A stretch of DNA of 17,664 nucleotides from Candidatus Sigynarchaeum calidifontis (GCA_030587475.2 JAUQYZ020000148.1:1-17664); one strand, 5' to 3'. Counted from the stretch's first letter, positions 1 to 13,853 are shown. Made by a program: numbers and translations. Notes: generated by a model from the sequence alone, not told the origin.

Positions 1-360
1 GATGGGGCACGCCAGGTTGCACCGGTTCGTGACATCGATCAAGGCAATGCACGGTGATGACTTGTGCGACGCGCACATCCCGCACTCGTGGGGGCAATTC
101 GTGCCCGGGCGTTCCGCGTGTGCCTTGTTCTCGATCGTGCAGAAATCGTGGTAGTATTGCTGGTTGCGCTCGTATTCGGGGGGATCACGGCTGATGATGT
201 CTTCGAAAAAGCCATGTTCCGAGCATTTCTTGCGCATCAGCACGGCATCCTTCCCTTCGAGCACGTCGACTATTATAGTTGCATCGATCTGCTTCAAGCA
301 CTCGGGACAGACTGATTTGGTTCGCCGGTAGAGTTTCTTTCCTTCCAAGTTGGGTTCCAT
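1..360 (-). CDS. tes: Radical SAM enzyme of the tetraether lipid synthase (Tes/GDGT-MAS, MJ0619) family; 5' part only, runs off the window edge
   Basis: Manual translation from the ATG at 360: MEPNLEGKKLYRRTKSVCPECLKQIDATIIVDVLEGKDAVLMRKKCSEHGFFEDIISRDPPEYERNQQYYHDFCTIENKAHAERPGTNCPHECGMCASHKSSPCIALIDVTNRCNLACPI. It has CxxC...CxxH (rubredoxin-like site), CPxxCGxCxxH (auxiliary cluster) and IDVTNRCNLxCPI (start of the CxxxCxxC motif), the MJ0619-family N-terminal layout. Confidence 0.85.
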   Translation of the reverse strand, partial: MEPNLEGKKLYRRTKSVCPECLKQIDATIIVDVLEGKDAVLMRKKCSEHGFFEDIISRDPPEYERNQQYYHDFCTIENKAHAERPGTNCPHECGMCASHKSSPCIALIDVTNRCNLACPI

Positions 361-4177: not shown

Positions 4178-5944
4178 ATGAGCGACGAAAAGAAACCAGC
4201 TACAATGTTTGAATTAATGCAGATGTCGCAAAGAAAGCAAGAAGCCGAAAAGGACAAGAAAAAAAAGGAAAAGGACAAGGAAAAAGACAAGGATAAAGAC
4301 AAGGGCAAGGAAAAAGATAAGGATCTGCAAGAGGGGCGAGAATTGGATGAAAAGCTCTTCGGTAAACCTCCGGCCACGGCGCCGGGTCAAGCGAAGCCCG
4401 CCGCTGGCCCGAGTTCACAAGATCTATTTGCATTGCTCGAGCAGACCGATAAAGAGGCGAAGGCAGCACTTAAAGCTCAGCTTTTCGACGCGATCGAGAG
4501 CATGGCGAAAGCCTATGCCGAAATTCCCATAAAAGGCATTTCCAAGCGCATCGGGGAGCAGAGCGAGGAGGCCGTTCTCGCCGTGCTCGAAGAGATGATC
4601 ATCAGCGGTGCGATCAAGGCACGGCTCGCCCCGGATCGGATCCTCCCCGCGGAAGGTTCGAGCAAGATCCTGGTCGACCGGGGTAGCGTGCAAGTGGAAT
4701 CCGCTCCAAAGCCCGCGCCGGCAGCACCTGCCGACAAAGGCACGCATGTCTCTCCCTCGGTGCCTGCGACCAAGCCGGTGCCCCCTGAAATACCCCGGAT
4801 AAGTAAAGCACCGGAATCACCCGTGATTCCCGCCCCGTCACTGGAAATACCACCTTCTCTATCAATCCCCTCGCAACCTCCAACCCCAATTCCTTCCCGG
4901 GTGACAGCACCGCCAGCGCCCTCCATACCGACGATCGAGCCTCCCCCGTCGATTTCATTGGAAACCGAGGTGCCCCCGAGCACATCCACGGTCAAGCCAG
5001 CTCCAGCCATTCCCGCCGCGGAGGAAATACCCGATTTTCCCAATCCCGATGCGGTGGAAGCTCCCCCGGATGCGATCCCGGTCCCTGTTCCAGTTCCAGC
5101 ACCCATCACTGAACCGGCTCCTGCTCCAATCCAGGCATCCGTGGTATCTAAGCCCGTCCCTCCAACACCAAGGCCGATGGGGGCACTCAAGCCCTTGGGA
5201 AAAATGCCAGCACCCAATCCTGCTAAACCGGGAGTGATGAAACCCGTTCCGGCGGCGCCGTCCATTCCCGTGGCCCCTGCAGCACCGTCCATTCCCGCGG
5301 CCCCTGCGGCGCCCGTCGTTCCCGCGGTACCGGCTATCCCAACTGCAGCGCAATCCCCTCATACAGGGGTGATGAAGTCAGTACCGCCCACGATCCCGCC
5401 GCGCGCTTCTCCTGCTGCGCAACCGGCACAGAACAAGCTCGCGGCAGTTCCACGGCCCCCGACAGTTCCACCATCGATGGCAAATCCGACGGCTACAGCT
5501 CAGGCAGTGCCATCCCCGCCTAGAGCGCCTGTTGTCCAAGCCGCTCCCCAGGTGCCGATGGTCACCAAGCCGGTAATGAAACAACCTCCTGTTCAAAAAC
5601 CCGTGGTCCCCGCAGCTACAGCAGTGCCATTCGCCCCGCAAGTACCGAGTGTTCCACGTCCTGCCCCGGCACAAGTTCGCCCCGTGTCTAAGGAAGAACA
5701 AGCCGCGATGTTCGAGCAAAAGGTGCATCAGCTGCTCGCCGATCGACCCACAGAACTGAAGCTGGTCTATAAATTATTTGAAAACCCGAAGCTTGCGCTG
5801 CTTGGCTTTGACGAGGACTGGATCGCGGGAGTTATGGGCATCTCGACCGAACAAGCTGTCGAGCTTATCAAGAACCTCCGGGCGCTCAACATCGTGAAGT
5901 TGAGCTCCACCGGCCTCAACTTCGTTATCAATACCAACCTCTAA
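4178..5944 (+). CDS. Large low-complexity protein: K/D/E tract, PCI-like winged helix, long Pro/Ala-rich linker, C-terminal winged helix
   Basis: 588-aa ORF. Residues ~100-157 (AIESMAKAYAEIPIKGISKRIGEQSEEAVLAVLEEMIISGAIKARL) match the PCI winged-helix pattern. The C-terminus (DWIAGVMGISTEQAVELIKNLRALNIVKL) is wHTH-like. A T-rich tract follows the stop. Confidence 0.8.
   Translation: MSDEKKPATMFELMQMSQRKQEAEKDKKKKEKDKEKDKDKDKGKEKDKDLQEGRELDEKLFGKPPATAPGQAKPAAGPSSQDLFALLEQTDKEAKAALKAQLFDAIESMAKAYAEIPIKGISKRIGEQSEEAVLAVLEEMIISGAIKARLAPDRILPAEGSSKILVDRGSVQVESAPKPAPAAPADKGTHVSPSVPATKPVPPEIPRISKAPESPVIPAPSLEIPPSLSIPSQPPTPIPSRVTAPPAPSIPTIEPPPSISLETEVPPSTSTVKPAPAIPAAEEIPDFPNPDAVEAPPDAIPVPVPVPAPITEPAPAPIQASVVSKPVPPTPRPMGALKPLGKMPAPNPAKPGVMKPVPAAPSIPVAPAAPSIPAAPAAPVVPAVPAIPTAAQSPHTGVMKSVPPTIPPRASPAAQPAQNKLAAVPRPPTVPPSMANPTATAQAVPSPPRAPVVQAAPQVPMVTKPVMKQPPVQKPVVPAATAVPFAPQVPSVPRPAPAQVRPVSKEEQAAMFEQKVHQLLADRPTELKLVYKLFENPKLALLGFDEDWIAGVMGISTEQAVELIKNLRALNIVKLSSTGLNFVINTNL
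4250..4324 (+). repeat. Degenerate 6-nt coding repeat encoding Lys-Asp/Lys-Glu
   Basis: AAGGAC/AAGGAA/AAAGAC/AAGGAT units encode KDKKKKEKDKEKDKDKDKGKEKDKD. Confidence 0.7.
5252..5332 (+). repeat. Three imperfect 27-nt tandem coding repeats
   Basis: AAPSIPVAP / AAPSIPAAP / AAPVVPAVP at 5252-5278, 5279-5305 and 5306-5332. Confidence 0.75.
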
Positions 5945-5945
5945 C

Positions 5946-5978
5946 CTTTCTTTTTCTTCTCGTTTACTCGCGTTTTTT
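5946..5978 (+). terminator. Possible pyrimidine/T-rich terminator
   Basis: CCTTTCTTTTTCTTCTCGTTTACTCGCGTTTTTT immediately after the stop at 5944. Confidence 0.4.
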
Positions 5979-6051
5979 GAACCATCCGCATTCCAATCTT
6001 AAAGACAGAATCATTATTCCTCGTCAAAGAACATGATGGACTTGACGATCC

Positions 6052-7488
6052 TTGTCGGAAAAGAAATTGGACTTGAGCCGGCCAACAGGCACGCGGGATT
6101 TCCTCCCCGCTGACCTTCGTAAACACCGGAAGGTCGAGCGAATCGTGCGTGAGTCCCTTGAAGCGTTCGGATTCGAGGAGATCATGACGCCCACGTTTGA
6201 ATTCTTCGATCTCTTTCTCGTGAAGTCGGGCGAGAAATTCCGCGAGGACACCTTCACGTTCAAGGCTCCAAAGGCACAGCTGGAGCTAAATAACAAGGAA
6301 TTGCCACCCGAGGATGCGCGCACCTTCGTGCTACGTCCCGAGTTCACCGCGCCGGTCTGCCGGTTTTACATCCAGAGTGACTTGAACTCGTTTCCAAAGC
6401 CTCTCAAGATATATTACGTCGGCCCCGTGTTCCGGTATGATAAGCCCGCCCCTGGCCGCTATCGAGAATTTTACCAGTTCGGTGTCGAAGTGTTCGGCAT
6501 TCCTGGAGCCATTGCGGACGCGGAGATCATGTACGTGGCGGCGAGCATCGTGCAAAAGCTCGGCATAAAGGATTACATTCTCCGAATGAATGACCTTAAC
6601 ATCCTTCGCGAATTGTTGTACGAGAATGCGATAAAGGAGGACGTGCAAGACAAGGTCATTGGCCTCATGGACAAGGCTAATGGCGATAGGATCAAGTACA
6701 AGATGGGCTTGCTCGATGACACGACGCAAGAGGCCATCGATGCAGCATTCACGGATGCCTTGAGCTGTCTAGGACTAGGGCAATCGCTGGTCTCGACGCT
6801 CGAGCAGTTCCTCGGCTTGAACGGTTCCTTCAAGGACGACGTGCTTTCACGTGCACGGCAAGTACTCGCGGCTTACCCCAAGGCGCTCCAGGCACTTGAA
6901 TCAAGTACACTTCTCCGTGCCGAGCAATTGCTCGATGCCGGGGGGATCAAGAGCCGTGTCGTGGACCTCTCCCTCGCACGCGGGCTCGATTATTACACGG
7001 GCCTCGTGTTCGAGATCGACTCGCCCTCGCTCGGCAAGCAGAAGCAGATCTGCGGCGGCGGTCGGTACGACCGGCTCATACGCGATTTTGGTGGTGATGA
7101 CACGCCCGCGACCGGGTTCGCGTTCGGCCTCGACCGGCTCGTCCTCGCTGCGGAAAATAACGGTGCCTTGAAGATGGAAACCACGTCCAGGGCAGATGTG
7201 TTCCTTTTTGCCTTCACGCCTGAACTCGTGTTGGAAGCGTTCAAGTTGCAAGCCAAGCTCATTGAAAACGGCATCAAGGTCGAGCTCAGCATCACGGATT
7301 GGAACGTGAAGCGTGCTCTCCAATGTGCTTCCAAGCTCGCCTTCCCCTTCGCTATATTGCTCGGGGAGAAGGAATGGAAAGAAGGTAAAGTCGCTCTAAA
7401 GAATTTAATATCCACGAAACAAGAAGTCGTGACGTTGGATCAAGCTATATCGATCGTGAAAAGGACCCTTGCGTCCACCACGAAGTGA
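6052..7488 (+). CDS. hisS: Histidine--tRNA ligase
   Basis: PTGTRDFLP, motif 1 (GFEEIMTPTFE), LRPEFT, motif 2 (FRYDKPAPGRYREFYQFGVE), LARGLDYYTG, GGGRYD, motif 3 (GFAFGLDRL) and a C-terminal anticodon-binding domain. TTG start, with an in-frame stop at 6043-6045 just upstream. Confidence 0.95.
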   Translation: MSEKKLDLSRPTGTRDFLPADLRKHRKVERIVRESLEAFGFEEIMTPTFEFFDLFLVKSGEKFREDTFTFKAPKAQLELNNKELPPEDARTFVLRPEFTAPVCRFYIQSDLNSFPKPLKIYYVGPVFRYDKPAPGRYREFYQFGVEVFGIPGAIADAEIMYVAASIVQKLGIKDYILRMNDLNILRELLYENAIKEDVQDKVIGLMDKANGDRIKYKMGLLDDTTQEAIDAAFTDALSCLGLGQSLVSTLEQFLGLNGSFKDDVLSRARQVLAAYPKALQALESSTLLRAEQLLDAGGIKSRVVDLSLARGLDYYTGLVFEIDSPSLGKQKQICGGGRYDRLIRDFGGDDTPATGFAFGLDRLVLAAENNGALKMETTSRADVFLFAFTPELVLEAFKLQAKLIENGIKVELSITDWNVKRALQCASKLAFPFAILLGEKEWKEGKVALKNLISTKQEVVTLDQAISIVKRTLASTTK

Positions 7489-8789
7489 ACTCGCACATCC
7501 AAGAGCATCCGGCGATGTTTAAATTCGGCATGGTCGAAACGCGGGCCTGCCCGCGATGTAATTACAAGATCGCGGCTCCGTATCCAGTCAATTGCCCCCG
7601 CTGTAACGAACCCCTCGAGAAGGTCGTATCGAGCGTTGTATCTCCAGCGAATGCACAAATCGTAAAAGAAAAAGAAGTTCCATCACGAGCCACGACGCCA
7701 CCACCCACGGATTTCGCGGCCACGATTACCTCACACGCCAAGGCCTCGCAACCCCTTGTGCAAGCTGCTGATTCGAGCACGCGGCCCGCAGTACCAAAGA
7801 CACCCCCAACCTTGCTCAGCAAGGAGGGCGATTACCTGAAGATGATGGGTGTCATCAATCTCCAATCCCGGGAGGTCATCTTCTGCAGCAATGACGAGTA
7901 TGCGTACGTGCTAGATCTCGGTGCCAATGCGCACGAGATCGCGACGTCGATCTTGGGCGGCGACCTGGAGCGCATCTTGCTCGAGCCACCGAAGGAACAA
8001 GCAATTGCTCCTGGTGATGGCGAACCGCCCGCGAAAAACACGCTCTTCACCTTCGAGGAGGCCATCTTCCAGACACACGGATCCATGTTGTTTTGCATCT
8101 ACGGGGTCTTCTTCAAGCGGCCGGCCGTCTTGTTACAAGAATTAAAGCGCTTGATGATCGATATCTTCAAGGGGCAAGTAAAAGCAGCAATGTCGCCCCT
8201 GGAGCGAAGCGAGATCGAGCGCCGCAAGGCATCTATCTCCGGCTTCATCGTTCACGAGTACCAGAAGATCCGGGACGCGGCCCTCCGGCGAGCAACCATC
8301 CCGACCATGGAAAACGTGGTCAAGCTCCACTACGTCGGGTTGTCCTTCCAGTCGATCGGCACCATGGCGCTGTTGCTCACGCCGCGGGGCCCCGATGCAT
8401 TACCCATCAAGGACATGTCGTTCTCCGGCGACACGGCCGATGGTAATTACCTGGATCTTCTGGAAAGCTTGATATCGGCCAAGATCGAAGCCATCGCGGC
8501 GAACACGCTTGCCCACACGGGATCTTTCCCCCGGTACATCATTACCAAGGTCGGTTTCGACCAGTACCGGCTCATCGAATTCTTCCAGCTCGCGAATAGC
8601 TACAACTTGCAAATCCTTGCATCGGGGAACATCAGCCTTCTTGAAAGCGTGCTCAGCGAGGTTATCTTGCCCATCGTGGCGCCAATTACCGCGGTGCCTT
8701 TTTCAGGGATGCTCACGACCCACAACGAGATCAAGGCAAAGCTCCGCGAACGGTTATCGAACAACTACATCTACGAGATCAAAAAATAA
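7485..8789 (+). CDS. Zinc-ribbon protein with two probable longin/roadblock-like domains
   Basis: CPRC-x12-CPRC, then a Pro/Thr/Ala linker, then two units with a bb-a-bbb-aa-like pattern; the second ends PFSGMLTTHNEIKAKLRERL. The GTG start overlaps the hisS TGA (GTGA); alternative ATGs lie at 7515 and 7530. Confidence 0.7.
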   Translation: MNSHIQEHPAMFKFGMVETRACPRCNYKIAAPYPVNCPRCNEPLEKVVSSVVSPANAQIVKEKEVPSRATTPPPTDFAATITSHAKASQPLVQAADSSTRPAVPKTPPTLLSKEGDYLKMMGVINLQSREVIFCSNDEYAYVLDLGANAHEIATSILGGDLERILLEPPKEQAIAPGDGEPPAKNTLFTFEEAIFQTHGSMLFCIYGVFFKRPAVLLQELKRLMIDIFKGQVKAAMSPLERSEIERRKASISGFIVHEYQKIRDAALRRATIPTMENVVKLHYVGLSFQSIGTMALLLTPRGPDALPIKDMSFSGDTADGNYLDLLESLISAKIEAIAANTLAHTGSFPRYIITKVGFDQYRLIEFFQLANSYNLQILASGNISLLESVLSEVILPIVAPITAVPFSGMLTTHNEIKAKLRERLSNNYIYEIKK

Positions 8790-8851: not shown

Positions 8852-9193
8852 TCAAATCATGACATTTTTCTTGCAGTTGGCGCATTGCACGAGTTTTCCG
8901 TTGTAGAGCGTGTAAGTTTTCCGGTTCAACGAGATGGGCGCCGGGCAGAAGGGGTAATCCTTGATGTAGGCCAATGGTTGCGCGCAAGCGGGGCTTGAGA
9001 CCCACTGCTTGAAATCGGGTAGTCGTGTCGGCCGTGTTGGCATGACCATGGCACGAGTACTGCCATTGATGTTGATCGTGATGCTGCCAGGGAGCATGTT
9101 CGCCGTGTCGGTATACACCACGCTGAAATTGAACGGGGTACCCGAGGATCCATAAGCGGGACTCACTTGTTGGCTCGAAAGGCTCAATACCAT
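8852..9193 (-). pseudogene. Probable chimeric remnant: Ig-like surface-protein fragment joined to a degenerate multi-zinc-ribbon
   Basis: The first ~50 aa (VSPAYGSSGTPFNFSVVYTDTANMLPGSITININGSTRAM) resemble half of an extracellular beta-sandwich with no signal peptide. The tail has SPAC, YPFC and CANC, so two of three CxxC knuckles lack their first Cys. Confidence 0.5.
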
Positions 9194-9530: not shown

Positions 9531-10133
9531 ATGAAACAACAGCCTGGTCGCATTGCGGAGAATGTCCGCAAGTCGAAAGAGACCACGATCAAGGTAAAGG
9601 TGAATCTTGATGGCAAAGGCAATTTCAACATCACGACCAAGGTGCCGTTCTTCACGCACATGCTCCAGATGATCGCCAAGCACTCGCGCATCGACATGGA
9701 CATCGAGGCGACGGGAGACCTCGACCACCACGTGATCGAGGACACGGCCATCCTGCTCGGCACGGCGATCCGCGAGGCCCTTGGAGACATGAAGGGGATC
9801 TACCGGTTCGGGCAGCATTACCTTCCCATGGACGAGAGCCTTGCCCGCTGCGCGCTTGATCTCTCGGGCCGGGCGTACTACGTGGGCAACTTGAATCTGG
9901 AAGGGCTCGATATCGAGGGCATGAAGGTCGAGGACATCGACCACTTCTTGCTCACGTTCGCGCAGAACCTCAAGGCGAACATCCACCTGGAAGTGCTGTA
10001 CGGCGACAACGATCACCACAAGGTCGAGGCAGCGCTCAAGGCGCTGGCGTTGTCGCTCCGCATGGCCAAGCGGGTGGACGAGCTCGCTGCCGACGACGTG
10101 CCGTCAACCAAGGGGATGCTCGATACGAAATGA
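9531..10133 (+). CDS. hisB: Imidazoleglycerol-phosphate dehydratase (monofunctional)
   Basis: RKSKETTI, PFFTHML, GDLDHHVIED, PMDESLA, DLSGR, NDHHKVEA, VPSTKG. Confidence 0.97.
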   Translation: MKQQPGRIAENVRKSKETTIKVKVNLDGKGNFNITTKVPFFTHMLQMIAKHSRIDMDIEATGDLDHHVIEDTAILLGTAIREALGDMKGIYRFGQHYLPMDESLARCALDLSGRAYYVGNLNLEGLDIEGMKVEDIDHFLLTFAQNLKANIHLEVLYGDNDHHKVEAALKALALSLRMAKRVDELAADDVPSTKGMLDTK

Positions 10134-10161: not shown

Positions 10162-11793
10162 TTATTCCATTCGTTTGTCAAATCGCGTTAAAGGGGTTTT
10201 TTTCACTATAACGAAGAATGCGATGAATGCAGTGAATGAAATCCCTGACCACGCGAACCACGAGCCGATCTGTGCCCCGTCGAGGTTCAAGAAATAGTTC
10301 ACGAAAGGTCGGATCGGGTTCGGTTGTCTCGTCCGCCCCCCGATATCGAGGGGATTTGTCATGTAATCGACGAGCACGACTTGATGAGTGTTCATTTTCA
10401 ACACGGTGAAAAGCTCGGTTAGATTTGACGGGTTCATCATGCTCACGCGCACGAGCGTGTTGACGTCGCCGTTCATGTGCTCGTCGGTTCCACCCAGACA
10501 AGCAAGACCGTGATTCAAGCAGTATTCACGTATCGCTGACGAGTGCTCCGTCCCGCCGTTCACGATCTCGAAGCCGTCAACCCCCCACGCGTGCAATTCA
10601 TCGTACCTGTACGGCGTGCCGGGGCTCCCGGAATAGTGGTTCACGGTCACGAACGCGCCGGCCGCCTTCGCGGCGATGATGCAATCGCTCACGTTTAGGA
10701 AATGGATGTCCGGGTACATTGGATTTGCCTGGTCCAGGGGCGCGAATTGTTCCAGCGTCCCGTAGATGTTCAGATGGATGTCGTTGACCAGGTCCGTGTA
10801 TTCCTGGCCGATGATGACCGTGAAGTCCAGGTGGTTTTGCTCCACGTAGGCCTTGGCTTCTAGAGCTCCTTTAAGACCCTCGTGATCCGTGAAGGCGGCC
10901 CCGTGGATGCCTTGCTGGATGTACCAGTCGACCCGCTGCTGCGGTGATAGACTCCCGTCGCTGTACCACGTGTGCACGTGGAGGTCGAAGAGGTACTCGT
11001 TCGGGGCGAGCGTCGTTCGAATTGTGTAGTTCGGCAAGACTGCCGATGCCAGCGTGAAGAACCCGACCATCACGAGCACGATACCAGCAAGGGCGTACCT
11101 GGCCTCGCGCCCGACGAGACCGAGTGCCTTGAACGCGTGATATTTCGGCGAGGTCTTCGGGAGGGAAGCCCATGGCCTTGCTGCTGGCTCCTTCAGCGCC
11201 ATTCGCGGGTGGCAAAACACGACGGCGTGATGCACGACCTTGATAGCAATGAGCACGATGGCATACCACGAGATGATGTGGAGACCGAGCATGTACGATG
11301 TCATGAAAAAGTGTGCGCCGGCGATTGCCCACCCGATGAACAAGATAACCGCGCCCACGAGCAAGCCGATGCCCGTGTATTTCAAGAGAAAAGCGACGAA
11401 ATCACGGGCGTACCGGGCGAAGATCGCTACTTTCTGGTTCCCGCGCATGAGCACCTTGGTGAAAAATGCCTGCGCGACGCGGGCGATCGCGTAACCTATC
11501 GGGATGGCGACGAGCGCGTCGTACGGATTCACGAACAGAATAAAAACGATACCCGCGAATGGTTCGAAGATATAACGAGTCATGGGTATTTCTGATACAT
11601 ATTGTGCACTGACATCGACCTGGCCAAGCGCATCAAAAAACAATGGATCCCTGCGCGATAATGCGGCGAACACGATCAAGATTACCACCCAAGCGACAAA
11701 AACGGCGCCAAAAAAGAGAACCAACATCCTTTTTGGGGCCATGTGCCAGAAGTGCCGCGATTCGCTCGTGATTCGTGTATTTATGCTCTTCAT
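10162..11793 (-). CDS. Polytopic membrane protein with a PHP-family metallo-phosphoesterase domain
   Basis: About 5 N-terminal TM helices; PHP motifs DLHVHTWYSDG, FTDH, IIGQE, HLN, NHY, DGFEIVNG and GGTDEH; one C-terminal TM helix. A minus-strand TATAAAAA about 30 nt upstream of the ATG at 11793 supports this start. Confidence 0.85.
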   Translation of the reverse strand: MKSINTRITSESRHFWHMAPKRMLVLFFGAVFVAWVVILIVFAALSRRDPLFFDALGQVDVSAQYVSEIPMTRYIFEPFAGIVFILFVNPYDALVAIPIGYAIARVAQAFFTKVLMRGNQKVAIFARYARDFVAFLLKYTGIGLLVGAVILFIGWAIAGAHFFMTSYMLGLHIISWYAIVLIAIKVVHHAVVFCHPRMALKEPAARPWASLPKTSPKYHAFKALGLVGREARYALAGIVLVMVGFFTLASAVLPNYTIRTTLAPNEYLFDLHVHTWYSDGSLSPQQRVDWYIQQGIHGAAFTDHEGLKGALEAKAYVEQNHLDFTVIIGQEYTDLVNDIHLNIYGTLEQFAPLDQANPMYPDIHFLNVSDCIIAAKAAGAFVTVNHYSGSPGTPYRYDELHAWGVDGFEIVNGGTEHSSAIREYCLNHGLACLGGTDEHMNGDVNTLVRVSMMNPSNLTELFTVLKMNTHQVVLVDYMTNPLDIGGRTRQPNPIRPFVNYFLNLDGAQIGSWFAWSGISFTAFIAFFVIVKKTPLTRFDKRME

Positions 11794-11820
11794 GTGATTC
11801 ACGAGAAAGAGCAGTCTGCG

Positions 11821-11961: not shown

Positions 11962-13065
11962 ATGTCTCAGTATTTACGAAAATATCTTGCTAAATTCAAG
12001 GGTTATGTTCCCGGTGAACAGCCGGATCCTACGTTCATCAAGCTCAACACGAACGAGAACCCGTACGAACCCCCCGCTTCGGTCATCAACGATCTGAAGA
12101 ACGGCTTGAAAGATCTTCGAAAATACCCCGATATCGATGCCACGGAACTCAAGAAGCAGCTCACGTTCAACATCCGCGTGAACAAGGAGTCGGCGCTCAA
12201 GATGGACAACATCGTCGTGGGTGCCGGCGAGGACGAGCTGCTCGAGTTGGTTTTTAAGACGTTTGTCGACAAGAACGATCGAGTGGTTTTCTTCAGCCCC
12301 AGCTACGGCATGTACAGGGTTTGCTGTGAAATTTTCGACGCCGTGCCCGTCGAGATCCCGCTTAATCCTGATTTCACGATCCCCGAGCAAAAAGCCTTAT
12401 CTACGCCCGGCAAATTGATGCTCATCTGCAGCCCGAACAATCCCGACGGCGGTCGCGTTCCGAACGATCTTATCGCGAGGATATGTGAGAATTTCAAGGG
12501 CATCGTCGTGGTCGACGAGGCATACGTCGATTTTGCCGAGGACACGGCCCTTGGCCTTACAACGAAATACAACAACTTGATCATCTTGCGTACGTTCTCC
12601 AAGTCCTACAGCCTGGCATCGCTGCGCATCGGTTACCTCGTTTCGCTGAACCGGGACGTTATCCTGGCCATTCGCAAGGTCAAGCAGCCGTATAACGTCA
12701 ATCTGGCGGCGCAAGTCGCAGCTCTCTCTGGTTTAAAGCATCAAGCCGAGGTTGACGAGATCATCAAGAAGGTCAAGGACGAGAGAAATCGCCTCGTCGG
12801 CATGCTCAAGCAAATCCCGCAGATAAAGGTGTTCCCGACCGAATCCAACTTCATCTTGATCAAGATCGCCGTCGGAAACGACGAGACGAACATGAAGATC
12901 AACCAGAAGATCTTCTGGGAGCTCAAGAAACGGAAAGTGCTCGTGCGGACCTATCCCGAGCGGGGGCTCTACGAATTCCAGCGAATCACGGTTGGCAAGC
13001 CAGAAGACAACGACAAGTTCGTCCAGATCTTCAAGGAATGCCTGGAGATCGGCTTGTCTGGATGA
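11962..13065 (+). CDS. hisC: Histidinol-phosphate aminotransferase
   Basis: YVPGEQP, IKLNTNENPY, CSPNNPDG, VVDEAYVDF, PLP-lysine motif RTFSKSYSLASLRIGY, SNFIL, RITVG; located near hisB and hisS. Confidence 0.93.
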   Translation: MSQYLRKYLAKFKGYVPGEQPDPTFIKLNTNENPYEPPASVINDLKNGLKDLRKYPDIDATELKKQLTFNIRVNKESALKMDNIVVGAGEDELLELVFKTFVDKNDRVVFFSPSYGMYRVCCEIFDAVPVEIPLNPDFTIPEQKALSTPGKLMLICSPNNPDGGRVPNDLIARICENFKGIVVVDEAYVDFAEDTALGLTTKYNNLIILRTFSKSYSLASLRIGYLVSLNRDVILAIRKVKQPYNVNLAAQVAALSGLKHQAEVDEIIKKVKDERNRLVGMLKQIPQIKVFPTESNFILIKIAVGNDETNMKINQKIFWELKKRKVLVRTYPERGLYEFQRITVGKPEDNDKFVQIFKECLEIGLSG

Positions 13066-13115
13066 GCTTCTCTTTTCTTGACATTTTTTTTGGAGAAGAA
13101 AAGGAAAACAACAAA

Positions 13116-13853
13116 GTGGTTGCTTTGTTTGATTGGACATGGCTGATCATTTTCGGGGCAATTTGCGGTCTCGTCCTCGTTTACATGCTTTGCCGCCGCT
13201 GGATAAAAACGAGTTGGAAGCGCAAGGCCCTCGGCGCGGTCGTGCTGGTCTTGTCGGTCGGTATCTTGCTGGCGGGCTGGCACGCGACCGAATCCATGTT
13301 TGATACGGGTGGGCGCTATGACCCGAGCCGGTTCCCGATGGTTGAAGCCCCGTTCGAGAACGCAACGGACATCCGCGATTTTCGTAACGGCTTTTCCGGG
13401 TCGGCGTCTTGCCCGTGGGGGTATTCCCACCCGGGCGTTGATTTTTTCCTAAAAAATGGCACGAAAATGCTAGCCGCCTCGCCAGGACAAGTTTACGAGT
13501 TAAAGGTGGACGATAACGGCGAGGGCGCCTTTATACGGTTTTATATCCGCATTTACATCCGGTACAACACGTCTATTTGCATTCTCTACAGCTTGGAGTT
13601 GAAAACGACCGATTACGCCAATATCACGCGGCAATTAAGCCTCATCAAGGTCAAGGTCGGCGATTGGGTGTCGGCAGGGCAAGAACTGGGCCGCTTTTTC
13701 AACTGCGGTGGCGATCCCGACCATCTTGATTGGGGAATTTCCGACAACCACCAGCGTGTATGCCCGCAGCGATTTTTCACGCTGCCCGGTTATGAAAAGA
13801 TGATGGACCTCGTTCACGCGTTCCATCCAACCTGGAACTTGTGCTATCCTTGA
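13116..13853 (+). CDS. Membrane-anchored M23-family metallopeptidase-like protein
   Basis: Two N-terminal TM helices; HPGVDF (HxxxD), LAASPGQV, VKVGDWVSAGQELG, and DHLDWG in place of the usual PHLHF. Start at GTG 13116 after a purine-rich tract, or at ATG 13062 overlapping the hisC stop. Confidence 0.78.
   Translation: MVALFDWTWLIIFGAICGLVLVYMLCRRWIKTSWKRKALGAVVLVLSVGILLAGWHATESMFDTGGRYDPSRFPMVEAPFENATDIRDFRNGFSGSASCPWGYSHPGVDFFLKNGTKMLAASPGQVYELKVDDNGEGAFIRFYIRIYIRYNTSICILYSLELKTTDYANITRQLSLIKVKVGDWVSAGQELGRFFNCGGDPDHLDWGISDNHQRVCPQRFFTLPGYEKMMDLVHAFHPTWNLCYP

Follow-up and report, generated by a model that had tools for sequence, protein, structure and literature searches.

A 17,664-nucleotide (nt) stretch of DNA from Candidatus Sigynarchaeum calidifontis (GCA_030587475.2 JAUQYZ020000148.1:1-17664), referred to here as the window, carries directly downstream of hisS, the gene for the histidine--tRNA ligase, a gene whose product joins an N-terminal zinc ribbon to two predicted longin domains. 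This gene is called gene X below. The gene order observed in related genomes supports a persistent tie between the X family and the histidine (his) genes across the order to which the window's genome belongs, the conserved neighbour being hisC, the gene for histidinol-phosphate aminotransferase. This gene-context signal is solid, and from it we infer a function: with a probability of about 50%, X would be an adaptor or regulator whose expression, probably through co-transcription, is tied to the his genes and which would link histidine supply to a putative partner. An initial annotation of the window had instead centred on hisS, proposing that a histidyl-tRNA synthetase (HisRS), a winged-helix scaffold protein and a coupled tandem-longin protein form an amino-acid-sensing system. 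The three co-oriented genes that it named were all found, with the following features.

Positions 4178-5944, plus strand: P0001, an open reading frame (ORF) of 588 amino acids (aa) with no Pfam or NCBIfam family match.
Positions 5945-5985, plus strand: T-rich tract immediately behind the stop codon of P0001, read from the sequence.
Positions 6052-7488, plus strand: hisS, histidine--tRNA ligase (protein P0002), 478 aa, TTG start, assigned by Pfam and TIGR00442.
Positions 7489-7514, plus strand: spacer between hisS and X, 26 nt, without a T-run.
Positions 7515-8789, plus strand: gene X, zinc-ribbon and predicted double-longin protein, ATG start; an alternative GTG start at 7485 gives a protein of 434 aa (P0003), of which X is the part after the first 10 codons.

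To define the range of the X family, 400 genomes of the phylum were searched with a profile; 154 of these, including the window's own genome (G000; 89% complete, with the window on contig C121), make up the order, which is divided into the families f1 (the window's own), f2, f3, and f4 (the largest). X was present in 140 of the 400 genomes, namely G000, 137 of the 153 other genomes of the order, and two genomes elsewhere with marginal matches (E ~8e-4). By family, the other genomes carrying X were 2 of 3 in f1, the single genome of f2, 13 of 14 in f3, and 121 of 135 in f4. Because it is nearly absent outside the order, X is, as far as this distribution indicates, an order-level invention. A profile search of 1.84 billion representative proteins returned only 76 matches at E <=1e-3, 34 of them at E <=1e-30. 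The closest database relative of X with a name is labelled Candidatus Sigynarchaeota. Members of f1 and f4 share only ~30% identity in X.

Examination of the flanks of X showed which gene stays next to it. In all 28 of the best-scoring f4 loci (genera g22 and g23), a co-oriented aminotransferase ORF of ~361 aa lies directly upstream of X; two of these ORFs were tested, and both were hisC (323.8 and 313.8 bits against a TIGR01141 cut-off of 276.55). The hisC of the window is 43% identical to a hisC that precedes X in f4. When one genome per genus was sampled with 6-kb flanks, hisC was found before X in the f2 genome (1/1) and in 8 of the 10 genera of f4, but not in G151 and G164; a second sample placed it there in all but one (G169) of 16 additional f4 genomes, a count of 15/16. 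Pooled, a co-oriented hisC lies directly upstream of X in 51 of 54 sampled f4 genomes, and the linkage of X to his genes stands at 51/54 in f4, 1/1 in f2, 3/3 in f1, and 0/12 in f3. Pfam annotation of 119 ORFs at 14 loci revealed a co-directional hisG-hisD-hisC-X order in three of the four hisC-bearing loci (G130, G158, and G166), while in the fourth, G149, the hisC-X pair stands beside a DNA ligase gene. The outer neighbours vary by genus, with GH31-like, LRR, PAP2, or hexapeptide genes downstream of X and either hisD or DNA ligase upstream of hisC. Since these outer neighbours differ between genera, the hisC-X pair has been kept through rearrangements. Family f1 has, judging from these comparisons, moved the hisC/X part beside hisS and hisB.

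These findings suggest how X could work. X would be a lineage-specific, non-enzymatic adaptor or regulator built from the zinc ribbon, a flexible linker, and two longin domains that differ from each other, probably serving as a platform for the binding of proteins. It would be expressed within his clusters, together with hisS in the window and distally after hisC in most of the order, often as hisG-hisD-hisC-X, so its amount would track the expression of the histidine genes. In this way, X could couple histidine supply to a putative protein partner, and the link would be to the histidine pathway as a whole and not to tRNA-His charging specifically.

Several observations weigh against this assignment. 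In f3, the link to hisC was lost though X was kept, with hisC adjacent in none of 12 genomes, and three of the 54 sampled f4 genomes (G151, G164, and G169) have no adjacent hisC. The 54 genomes sampled are under half of the 121 f4 genomes with X, and the persistence of the hisC-X pair is a raw, uncalibrated count. The sampled genomes are relatives, and the number of independent events is small, about three arrangements. The predicted spacer between hisC and X has a median length of 64.5 nt; these spacers, 35-122 nt long and AT-rich, could include a separate promoter. Asgard genomes are rich in longin folds, and sharing a fold is no evidence of function. Finally, genus g23 has a second, more divergent X-like gene (L056:5974-7203 and L057:5974-7221; profile E ~1e-63), which adjoins a corrinoid adenosyltransferase gene and a 392-aa ORF of no assigned function and is not near his genes.

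Some of these points would also be expected if X were a general Asgard longin, active in GTPase regulation or membrane processes, that has come to ride on his promoters and has no function in histidine metabolism. Such synteny without a histidine function is possible, though we consider it somewhat unlikely. It would fit f3, where 13 of 14 genomes keep X and none of 12 shows the linkage, and the X paralogue that lies elsewhere in the genome in g23. It would also fit the report that, in a cultured strain, operons generally do not combine GTPase genes with those for roadblock or longin proteins, which, as far as the passages concerned go, makes gene context a poor guide to the GTPase partners of longins in that strain (PMC10933270). 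Against it, the adjacency of X to his genes survives at least three arrangements (hisG-hisD-hisC-X; hisC-X beside DNA ligase; and hisS-X-hisB-hisC) while the outer neighbours change, and the hisC-X pair persists despite the low identity between the f1 and f4 proteins. We retain the adaptor or regulator tied to histidine supply as the preferred reading.

In order to understand the architecture of X, a fold model was built with AlphaFold2 (AF2) on A1, a 20-sequence alignment of the family. The model has a predicted local distance difference test score (pLDDT) of 74.8 and a predicted template modelling score (pTM) of 0.68, and, together with the alignment, it divides X as follows (P0003 numbering).

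Positions 7539-7619, plus strand: N-terminal four-cysteine zinc ribbon (C22, C25, C37, and C40), seen in the AF2 model as a small ribbon at residues 19-45.
Positions 7623-7787, plus strand: linker of variable length (residues 47-101), with pLDDT <50 and a variable, gapped alignment.
Positions 7812-8279, plus strand: predicted longin domain 1 (residues ~110-265), with the order β-β-α-β-β-β-α-α in the AF2 model (elements 117-263).
Positions 8307-8786, plus strand: predicted longin domain 2 (residues ~275-434), with the order β-β-α-β-β-β-α-α in the AF2 model (elements 278-424).

Most 10-residue blocks of both domains have a pLDDT of 84-93, and three lie at 35-78. Conservation was measured across 69 family sequences translated from genomes, in which positions conserved at >=97% include the four ribbon cysteines and P38; K119, G122, R129, N136, N148, E191, G207, and K211 in domain 1; and E327, A332, E335-T341 (much of helix 1), R362, and N382 in domain 2. 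Sequence-based searches gave little: neither Pfam (P0003 at E up to 0.01) nor NCBIfam has a family for X, and a Pfam scan of the 20 members singly at E up to 1 found only zinc-ribbon families, weakly matched in 13 of the 20 (DZR, best E 0.0019), and no longin or roadblock family (Longin, Fuz_longin_1, or Robl_LC7). A profile search of A1 against the sequences of the PDB gave only two chance-level zinc-finger rows (E ~1). An Atlas feature search returned Asgard clusters without a name (0.95, 0.93, and 0.89) and, below the level of a lead, a cluster tagged roadblock/Fuz_longin (0.80).

Structure searches of the model pointed consistently to longin domains. The top Foldseek matches are multi-longin subunits of Rab guanine nucleotide exchange factors (RabGEFs), from CPLANE, BLOC-3, and Mon1-Ccz1, with E values of 6e-6 (the CPLANE entry 7q3e_B) to 1e-3 and probabilities of 0.9-1.0. 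Over whole chains, the template modelling (TM) score is ~0.2 and the root mean square deviation (rmsd) 18-23 Å, which places the similarity to the RabGEF subunits at the level of single domains. A VIA search of 48,161 chains, run independently of Foldseek, gave longin proteins by entry title in rows 1-37 (Z 10.8-7.1). The following are examples of the VIA alignments, taken from this search and from Foldseek's own matches.

Domain 1 with the SRX domain of SR-alpha: Z 10.8, rmsd 2.3 Å, 102 residues aligned.
Domain 1 with the VAMP7 longin domain: Z 10.0-10.5, rmsd 2.7-3.0 Å, 113-115 residues aligned.
Domain 1 with Fuzzy: Z 9.0.
Domain 2 with the COPI coat chain 9qpq: Z 10.4, rmsd 3.3 Å, 120 residues aligned.
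Domain 2 with the N-terminal longin domains of AP mu and sigma: Z 9.1-9.4, rmsd 3.0-3.4 Å, 115-119 residues aligned.
Domain 2 with a chain of the Mon1-Ccz1 complex: Z 9.1, rmsd 3.9 Å, 133 residues aligned.

These Z values are middling on the scale of VIA itself, and it is the uniformity of the list that carries the argument. Re-alignment of Foldseek's own matches with VIA gave a longin ranking that agrees. Roadblock folds appeared only from Z 7.0 down, below the 37 longin rows, and both X domains start with two strands; a roadblock/LC7 fold was rejected on these grounds. Collectively, the predicted fold and the solved longin domains among its best matches bear out the earlier description of X as a tandem-longin protein. 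Comparison of domain 1 with domain 2 by hhalign found no similarity (probability 0.2) and thus no evidence for a recent internal duplication.

Longin domains are engaged almost exclusively in protein-protein recognition, very often of small GTPases, and comparison with the known groups indicates where X stands among them. The eukaryotic trafficking longins (SRX; VAMP7, Sec22, and Ykt6; AP sigma and mu; zeta-COP; and the TRAPP subunits Bet5 and Trs23) have the same topology as each X domain, with Z 8-10.8 over 102-133 residues. They are, however, only 7-13% identical to X, which has no Pfam longin match, joins two unlike longin domains to an N-terminal zinc ribbon, and sits in his clusters. The tri-longin RabGEF subunits (Mon1-Ccz1, Fuzzy-Inturned of CPLANE, and HPS1-HPS4 of BLOC-3) also have several longin domains per chain and are the best whole-chain Foldseek matches, but X has two longins and not three, arranged differently (TM ~0.2). 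Membership of X in the tri-longin RabGEFs was rejected, as only two folded domains follow the ribbon. The longins of the GTPase-activating protein (GAP) type, FLCN, NPRL2, and SMCR8, which in eukaryotes are connected with amino-acid status, share the fold, as do the Asgard longins that are like them (PMC12290439). Their matches to X, a chain of 6ulg (FLCN-FNIP2-Rag-Ragulator) at Z 7.5 and a chain of GATOR1 (8fw5) at Z 6.4, fall 3-4 Z units short of those with SRX, VAMP7, and AP. X has neither a DENN domain nor the NPRL2 C-terminal domain. A GP motif at the end of the β1-β2 loop or the start of β2 is given as typical of FLCN, NPRL2, and SMCR8 in passages of PMC12290439. This motif is absent from the β1-β2 regions of both X domains (...INLQSREVIF... 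in domain 1 and ...SFQSIGTMA... in domain 2), and none is conserved there in A1. R129, in the β1-β2 loop of domain 1, and R362, in domain 2, may or may not correspond to the catalytic arginine fingers of GAP-type longins.

The "eukaryotic signature" proteins of Asgard archaea include longin and roadblock proteins, few of whose roles in archaea are known. Within this group, the longin domain of a Lokiarchaeota Roadblock-Longin protein (8yqg) is of the same broad fold class and aligns to domain 1 at Z 7.8-8.2. Two Asgard roadblock structures, 7yh1 and 9jue, share the phylum and the broad fold class with X, and alignments of roadblock structures to X reach no more than Z 7.0. In the search of the profile against PDB sequences, these solved proteins have no detectable sequence relationship to X. 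A histidine-gene context for Asgard longins was not met in the passages of PMC10933270 considered here.

To explore the role of hisS, its identity and its junction with X were analyzed. The hisS product, which has the class II core, matches Pfam tRNA-synt_His (1e-50) and the HGTP anticodon-binding domain; TIGR00442 gives it 353.9 bits (cut-off, 286.75), and its closest solved chains are HisRS (4e-52). It is the sole match above the TIGR00442 cut-off in G000, which indicates a housekeeping enzyme and not a sensor paralogue. A HisZ or other sensor-type HisRS paralogue was ruled out, the hisZ model giving 223.4 bits under a cut-off of 271.65 and no second HisRS-like gene being above cut-off. In the his operons of bacteria, ATP phosphoribosyltransferase is regulated by the HisRS paralogue HisZ, which is a functional analogue of X in so far as X, too, is proposed to be a non-enzymatic accessory protein inside his clusters; the folds are unrelated. 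HisG in these genomes is the long form with a HisG_C domain, and long-form HisG is not known to need HisZ.

At the junction, the GTG at 7485 overlaps the hisS TGA (7486-7488), as the initial annotation had read it, and in-frame ATGs follow at 7515 and 7530. The family alignment places the conserved N-terminus of X at the ATG at 7515. In the 10-codon extension from the GTG, three of the four changes relative to the same-genus genome G281 are non-synonymous; the extension is therefore probably not coding, and the GTG start is unlikely. The spacer between hisS and X is 26 nt in the window and in G281 and ~22 nt in G282, a genome of a different genus. As had been noted before, it holds no T-rich terminator, and hisS and X are most likely co-transcribed in the window's genome. 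Upstream of hisS, the spacer of 107 nt to P0001 opens with the T-rich tract, also seen earlier. Archaea commonly use oligo-T tracts as terminators, and by analogy the tract at 5945-5985 is likely to be a terminator separating P0001 from hisS, which would probably make P0001 a separate transcription unit. The T-rich tract on one side and the T-free spacer on the other thus suggest two units, P0001 alone and hisS with X.

The adjacency of hisS and X proved to be local. A search of the 154 genomes of the order with P0002 (E <=1e-40) found this type of hisS in 14, and it adjoins X only in f1, in G000, G281, and G282 (three genomes of two genera). In G281, the order is P0001-like gene, hisS, X. In G282, the contig break falls within X: a P0001-like C-terminus, hisS, and the first part of X, with the zinc ribbon, stand at the end of contig C230, and contig C335 opens within X, with hisB and hisC behind it. 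In the 11 f3 genomes with a P0002-type hisS, X is on a different contig, and in the single-contig f3 genomes G135, G138, and G143, hisS lies >1 Mb from X. No P0002-like sequence was found in the fetched flanks of X at 68 other loci (28 + 20 + 20). Synteny of hisS with the longin family, which the initial annotation had named as a check, thus gave hisC as the conserved neighbour in the order. The search also found a P0002-type hisS in none of the 135 f4 genomes and in 11 of the 14 f3 genomes; f4 may carry another HisRS type.

The P0001 gene was similarly restricted. Its product begins with a K/E/D-rich helix and a possible winged-helix region at ~80-160, continues with ~330 proline-rich, disordered residues, and ends in a winged-helix domain at residues 505-588. 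The AF2 model has an overall pLDDT of 48.7, with 69-89 for the C-terminal ~85 residues, where helices 546-553 and 557-569 are followed by a β hairpin (strands 573-575 and 582-584). All 50 matches listed by VIA cover residues 493-588 at a middling Z of 9.0-7.1, and we take all of them, by title or by recognition, to be winged-helix structures (TFE-alpha at Z 8.7, ArsR, MarR, IclR, and Fur). For the N-terminal region (pLDDT 40-50), there were only weak leads, namely Pfam PCI at E 0.034, MCM4_WHD, and under-bar Atlas structure rows. The winged-helix label of the initial annotation thus held for the C-terminal domain, through the model and the structure matches, and did not carry over to the N-terminal region. 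P0001 has one full-length relative in the protein database, and its C-terminal domain occurs in 3 of 154 genomes (G000, G281, and G282), each time directly upstream of hisS. P0001 is a real, f1-restricted neighbour of hisS outside the conserved surroundings of X, and its proposed place in a common system was not supported, given this restriction and the T-rich tract behind it. An extra copy of the C-terminal domain, 72% identical, lies in a 270-aa open frame of the same genome (G000:C90:15148-15393).

These results bear on the possibility that HisRS and X together sense histidine or uncharged tRNA-His, the longin platform passing the signal on to a small GTPase and the winged-helix protein serving as scaffold. 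In eukaryotes, some longin and roadblock proteins relay amino-acid status to Rag GTPases. The hisS-X spacer of 22-26 nt in three genomes of two genera, the order of P0001-like gene, hisS, and X kept in all three of these f1 genomes, and the presence of GTPase-binding platforms (SR-alpha SRX, Mon1-Ccz1, and Fuzzy) among the best structure matches are all compatible with such a sensor. A tie between Asgard longins and amino-acid starvation signalling has already been proposed from domain similarity alone, in the passages concerned of a preprint (bioRxiv 10.1101/2020.10.19.343400). We nevertheless regard a hisS-centred sensor as very unlikely, because the adjacency to hisS is confined to f1, with nothing like P0002 near X at the other loci, because hisS is the genome's only canonical HisRS and not a sensor paralogue, and because P0001 is absent outside f1 and is followed by the T-rich tract. 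In addition, neither a conserved GTPase near X nor a GP motif was found: among the 119 annotated ORFs, a single Ras-family gene lay 4 kb away at one of 14 loci, and a Pfam scan of 17 ORFs of the window found no GTPase family, as the initial annotation had cautioned.

A different kind of sensor was also considered, in which X would be a small-molecule-sensing regulator of the his genes or enzymes, its longin domains binding histidine or an intermediate and its ribbon contacting nucleic acid or the transcription or translation machinery. PAS/GAF-type folds, which resemble the longin fold, bind ligands, and low-probability Foldseek rows include PAS-GAF sensor modules. These rows, however, have probabilities of 0.06-0.23 against 0.9-1.0 for the longins, and no solved longin match is a ligand sensor by title. 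The distal position of X in the operon is typical of pathway-specific regulators, and the ribbon is conserved, but no DNA-binding family matches X itself. A further hint comes from P0034, where weak winged-helix helix-turn-helix (HTH) matches precede an X-like part, although this single fused form may be an artefact of gene calling or assembly. On balance, direct ligand sensing by X seems unlikely. The family has no other long fused form than P0034, which comes from the representative library and has 929 aa: its X-like part is at residues 502-872, preceded by ~500 residues with the HTH matches (E 0.0016-0.005, below the Pfam cut-offs) and followed by a second zinc ribbon, and it could be a genuine fusion or an artefact.

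We also examined whether X might be a missing enzyme of the pathway, such as the histidinol-phosphate phosphatase, whose step lies between those of HisC and HisD. X adjoins hisC and hisD, the genes of the flanking steps, and has many invariant polar residues. However, a HisJ-family gene above the TIGR01856 cut-off was present in all five genomes tested (188.4 against 90.2 bits in G000), leaving no obvious pathway gap for X; an IMPase-family gene was present in four of the five; and no longin match is an enzyme by title. X as the missing histidinol-phosphatase was accordingly rejected, since HisJ-type genes are present elsewhere in the genomes, and any enzymatic role of this kind is hardly credible.

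The start codons of X revealed a second unusual property. Sixty-four X genes with an intact CxxC...CxxC ribbon were surveyed, 54 of them from f4 (L004-L031, L041-L050, and L060-L075) and 10 from f1, f2, and f3. In 28 of the 64, the frame from the nearest upstream stop codon to the first ribbon cysteine contains none of the codons ATG, GTG, and TTG. All 28 are in f4 (28/54), with none among the 10 from the other families. The codon aligned with the ATG of other members is most often ATT, otherwise ATA or ATC, and once ACG, and an in-frame TAA or TGA often stands directly before the ATT, ATA, or ATC. Examples are L007, L019, and L021 (TAA, then ATT) and L020 and L023 (TGA, then ATT); L044 and L063-L065 are further cases. 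A conserved motif containing (G)GAG lies 9-11 nt upstream of the start position and is kept even where it is out of frame. As a control, other frames of >=300 codons in the same f4 loci were examined, and the first canonical start fell >=30 codons past the stop in 3 of 103, compared to 21 of 43 X frames on the same measure. The hisC genes just upstream of X have ordinary starts, and the X of the window has a normal ATG. These patterns suggest near-cognate initiation specific to X, which would make its translation weak or regulated.

The start codons could be combined with the gene order in a more far-reaching proposal, in which an archaeal circuit for histidine status would have X as its output arm. 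X would be made only when the his genes are on, its synthesis in f4 would be gated further by AUU, AUA, or AUC codons, and it would act on a small GTPase or similar switch. This elaboration we consider quite unlikely. If it were true, X would be a prokaryotic forerunner of the way in which eukaryotes sense amino acids through longin proteins (GATOR1, FLCN-FNIP, and the Rag GTPases). Longin and roadblock proteins were already known from Asgard archaea, several of them with solved structures; what is new here is the sequence family that joins a zinc ribbon to two predicted longin domains, its persistent place in his clusters, and its odd start codons. A full-text literature search found no title describing a longin protein in a histidine operon, and supplements may list the X family by cluster number. 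A longin family beside his genes across an order offers a testable handle on the idea of a tie to amino-acid starvation, with the protein, the pathway, and the junctions named. The starts other than ATG, GTG, or TTG in about half of the f4 X genes are an oddity that can be tested separately.

The remaining features of the window downstream of X and hisS were assigned as follows.

Positions 8852-9193, minus strand: ORF of 113 aa with no known family, between X and hisB, from the ORF call and Pfam.
Positions 9531-10133, plus strand: hisB, imidazoleglycerol-phosphate dehydratase (Pfam IGPD 1.9e-52).
Positions 10162-11802, minus strand: PHP-domain protein of 546 aa, between hisB and hisC (Pfam PHP 3.4e-8).
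Positions 11962-13065, plus strand: hisC, histidinol-phosphate aminotransferase (TIGR01141, 319.3 bits against a cut-off of 276.55).

Family models thus confirmed hisB and hisC on the same strand, as predicted; hisB scored up to 229.8 bits on the NCBIfam HisB models and was above the cut-off for NF002114. The hisG-hisD-hisH genes of G000 are on another contig. An ORF similar to that at 8852-9193 is present in G281 and absent from G282, where hisB begins ~63 nt after X. The PHP protein has weak NCBIfam metallohydrolase and histidinol-phosphatase-domain matches; the best HisJ-type histidinol-phosphatase candidate of the genome is on contig C31 and is not this gene. In G282, hisB adjoins hisC with no PHP gene between them. 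The last 28 nt of hisC are shared with an M23-peptidase-domain gene (13038-13853, plus strand), and an ORF at the window's left edge (1-360, minus strand) has an N-terminal zinc ribbon of the HMPTM type (1.7e-16).

In f3, hisB was found 1.3 kb from X, on the other strand, in 1 of 12 genomes. The next gene after X in this family, in the same orientation, encodes a conserved ~365-aa protein that belongs to no known family and is 49% identical between two genera (L037:7175-8263, L038:4808-5917, L039:4751-5842, and L051:4796-5896). The ~80 N-terminal residues of this protein contain a CxxC motif and have seven weak relatives scattered in G000.

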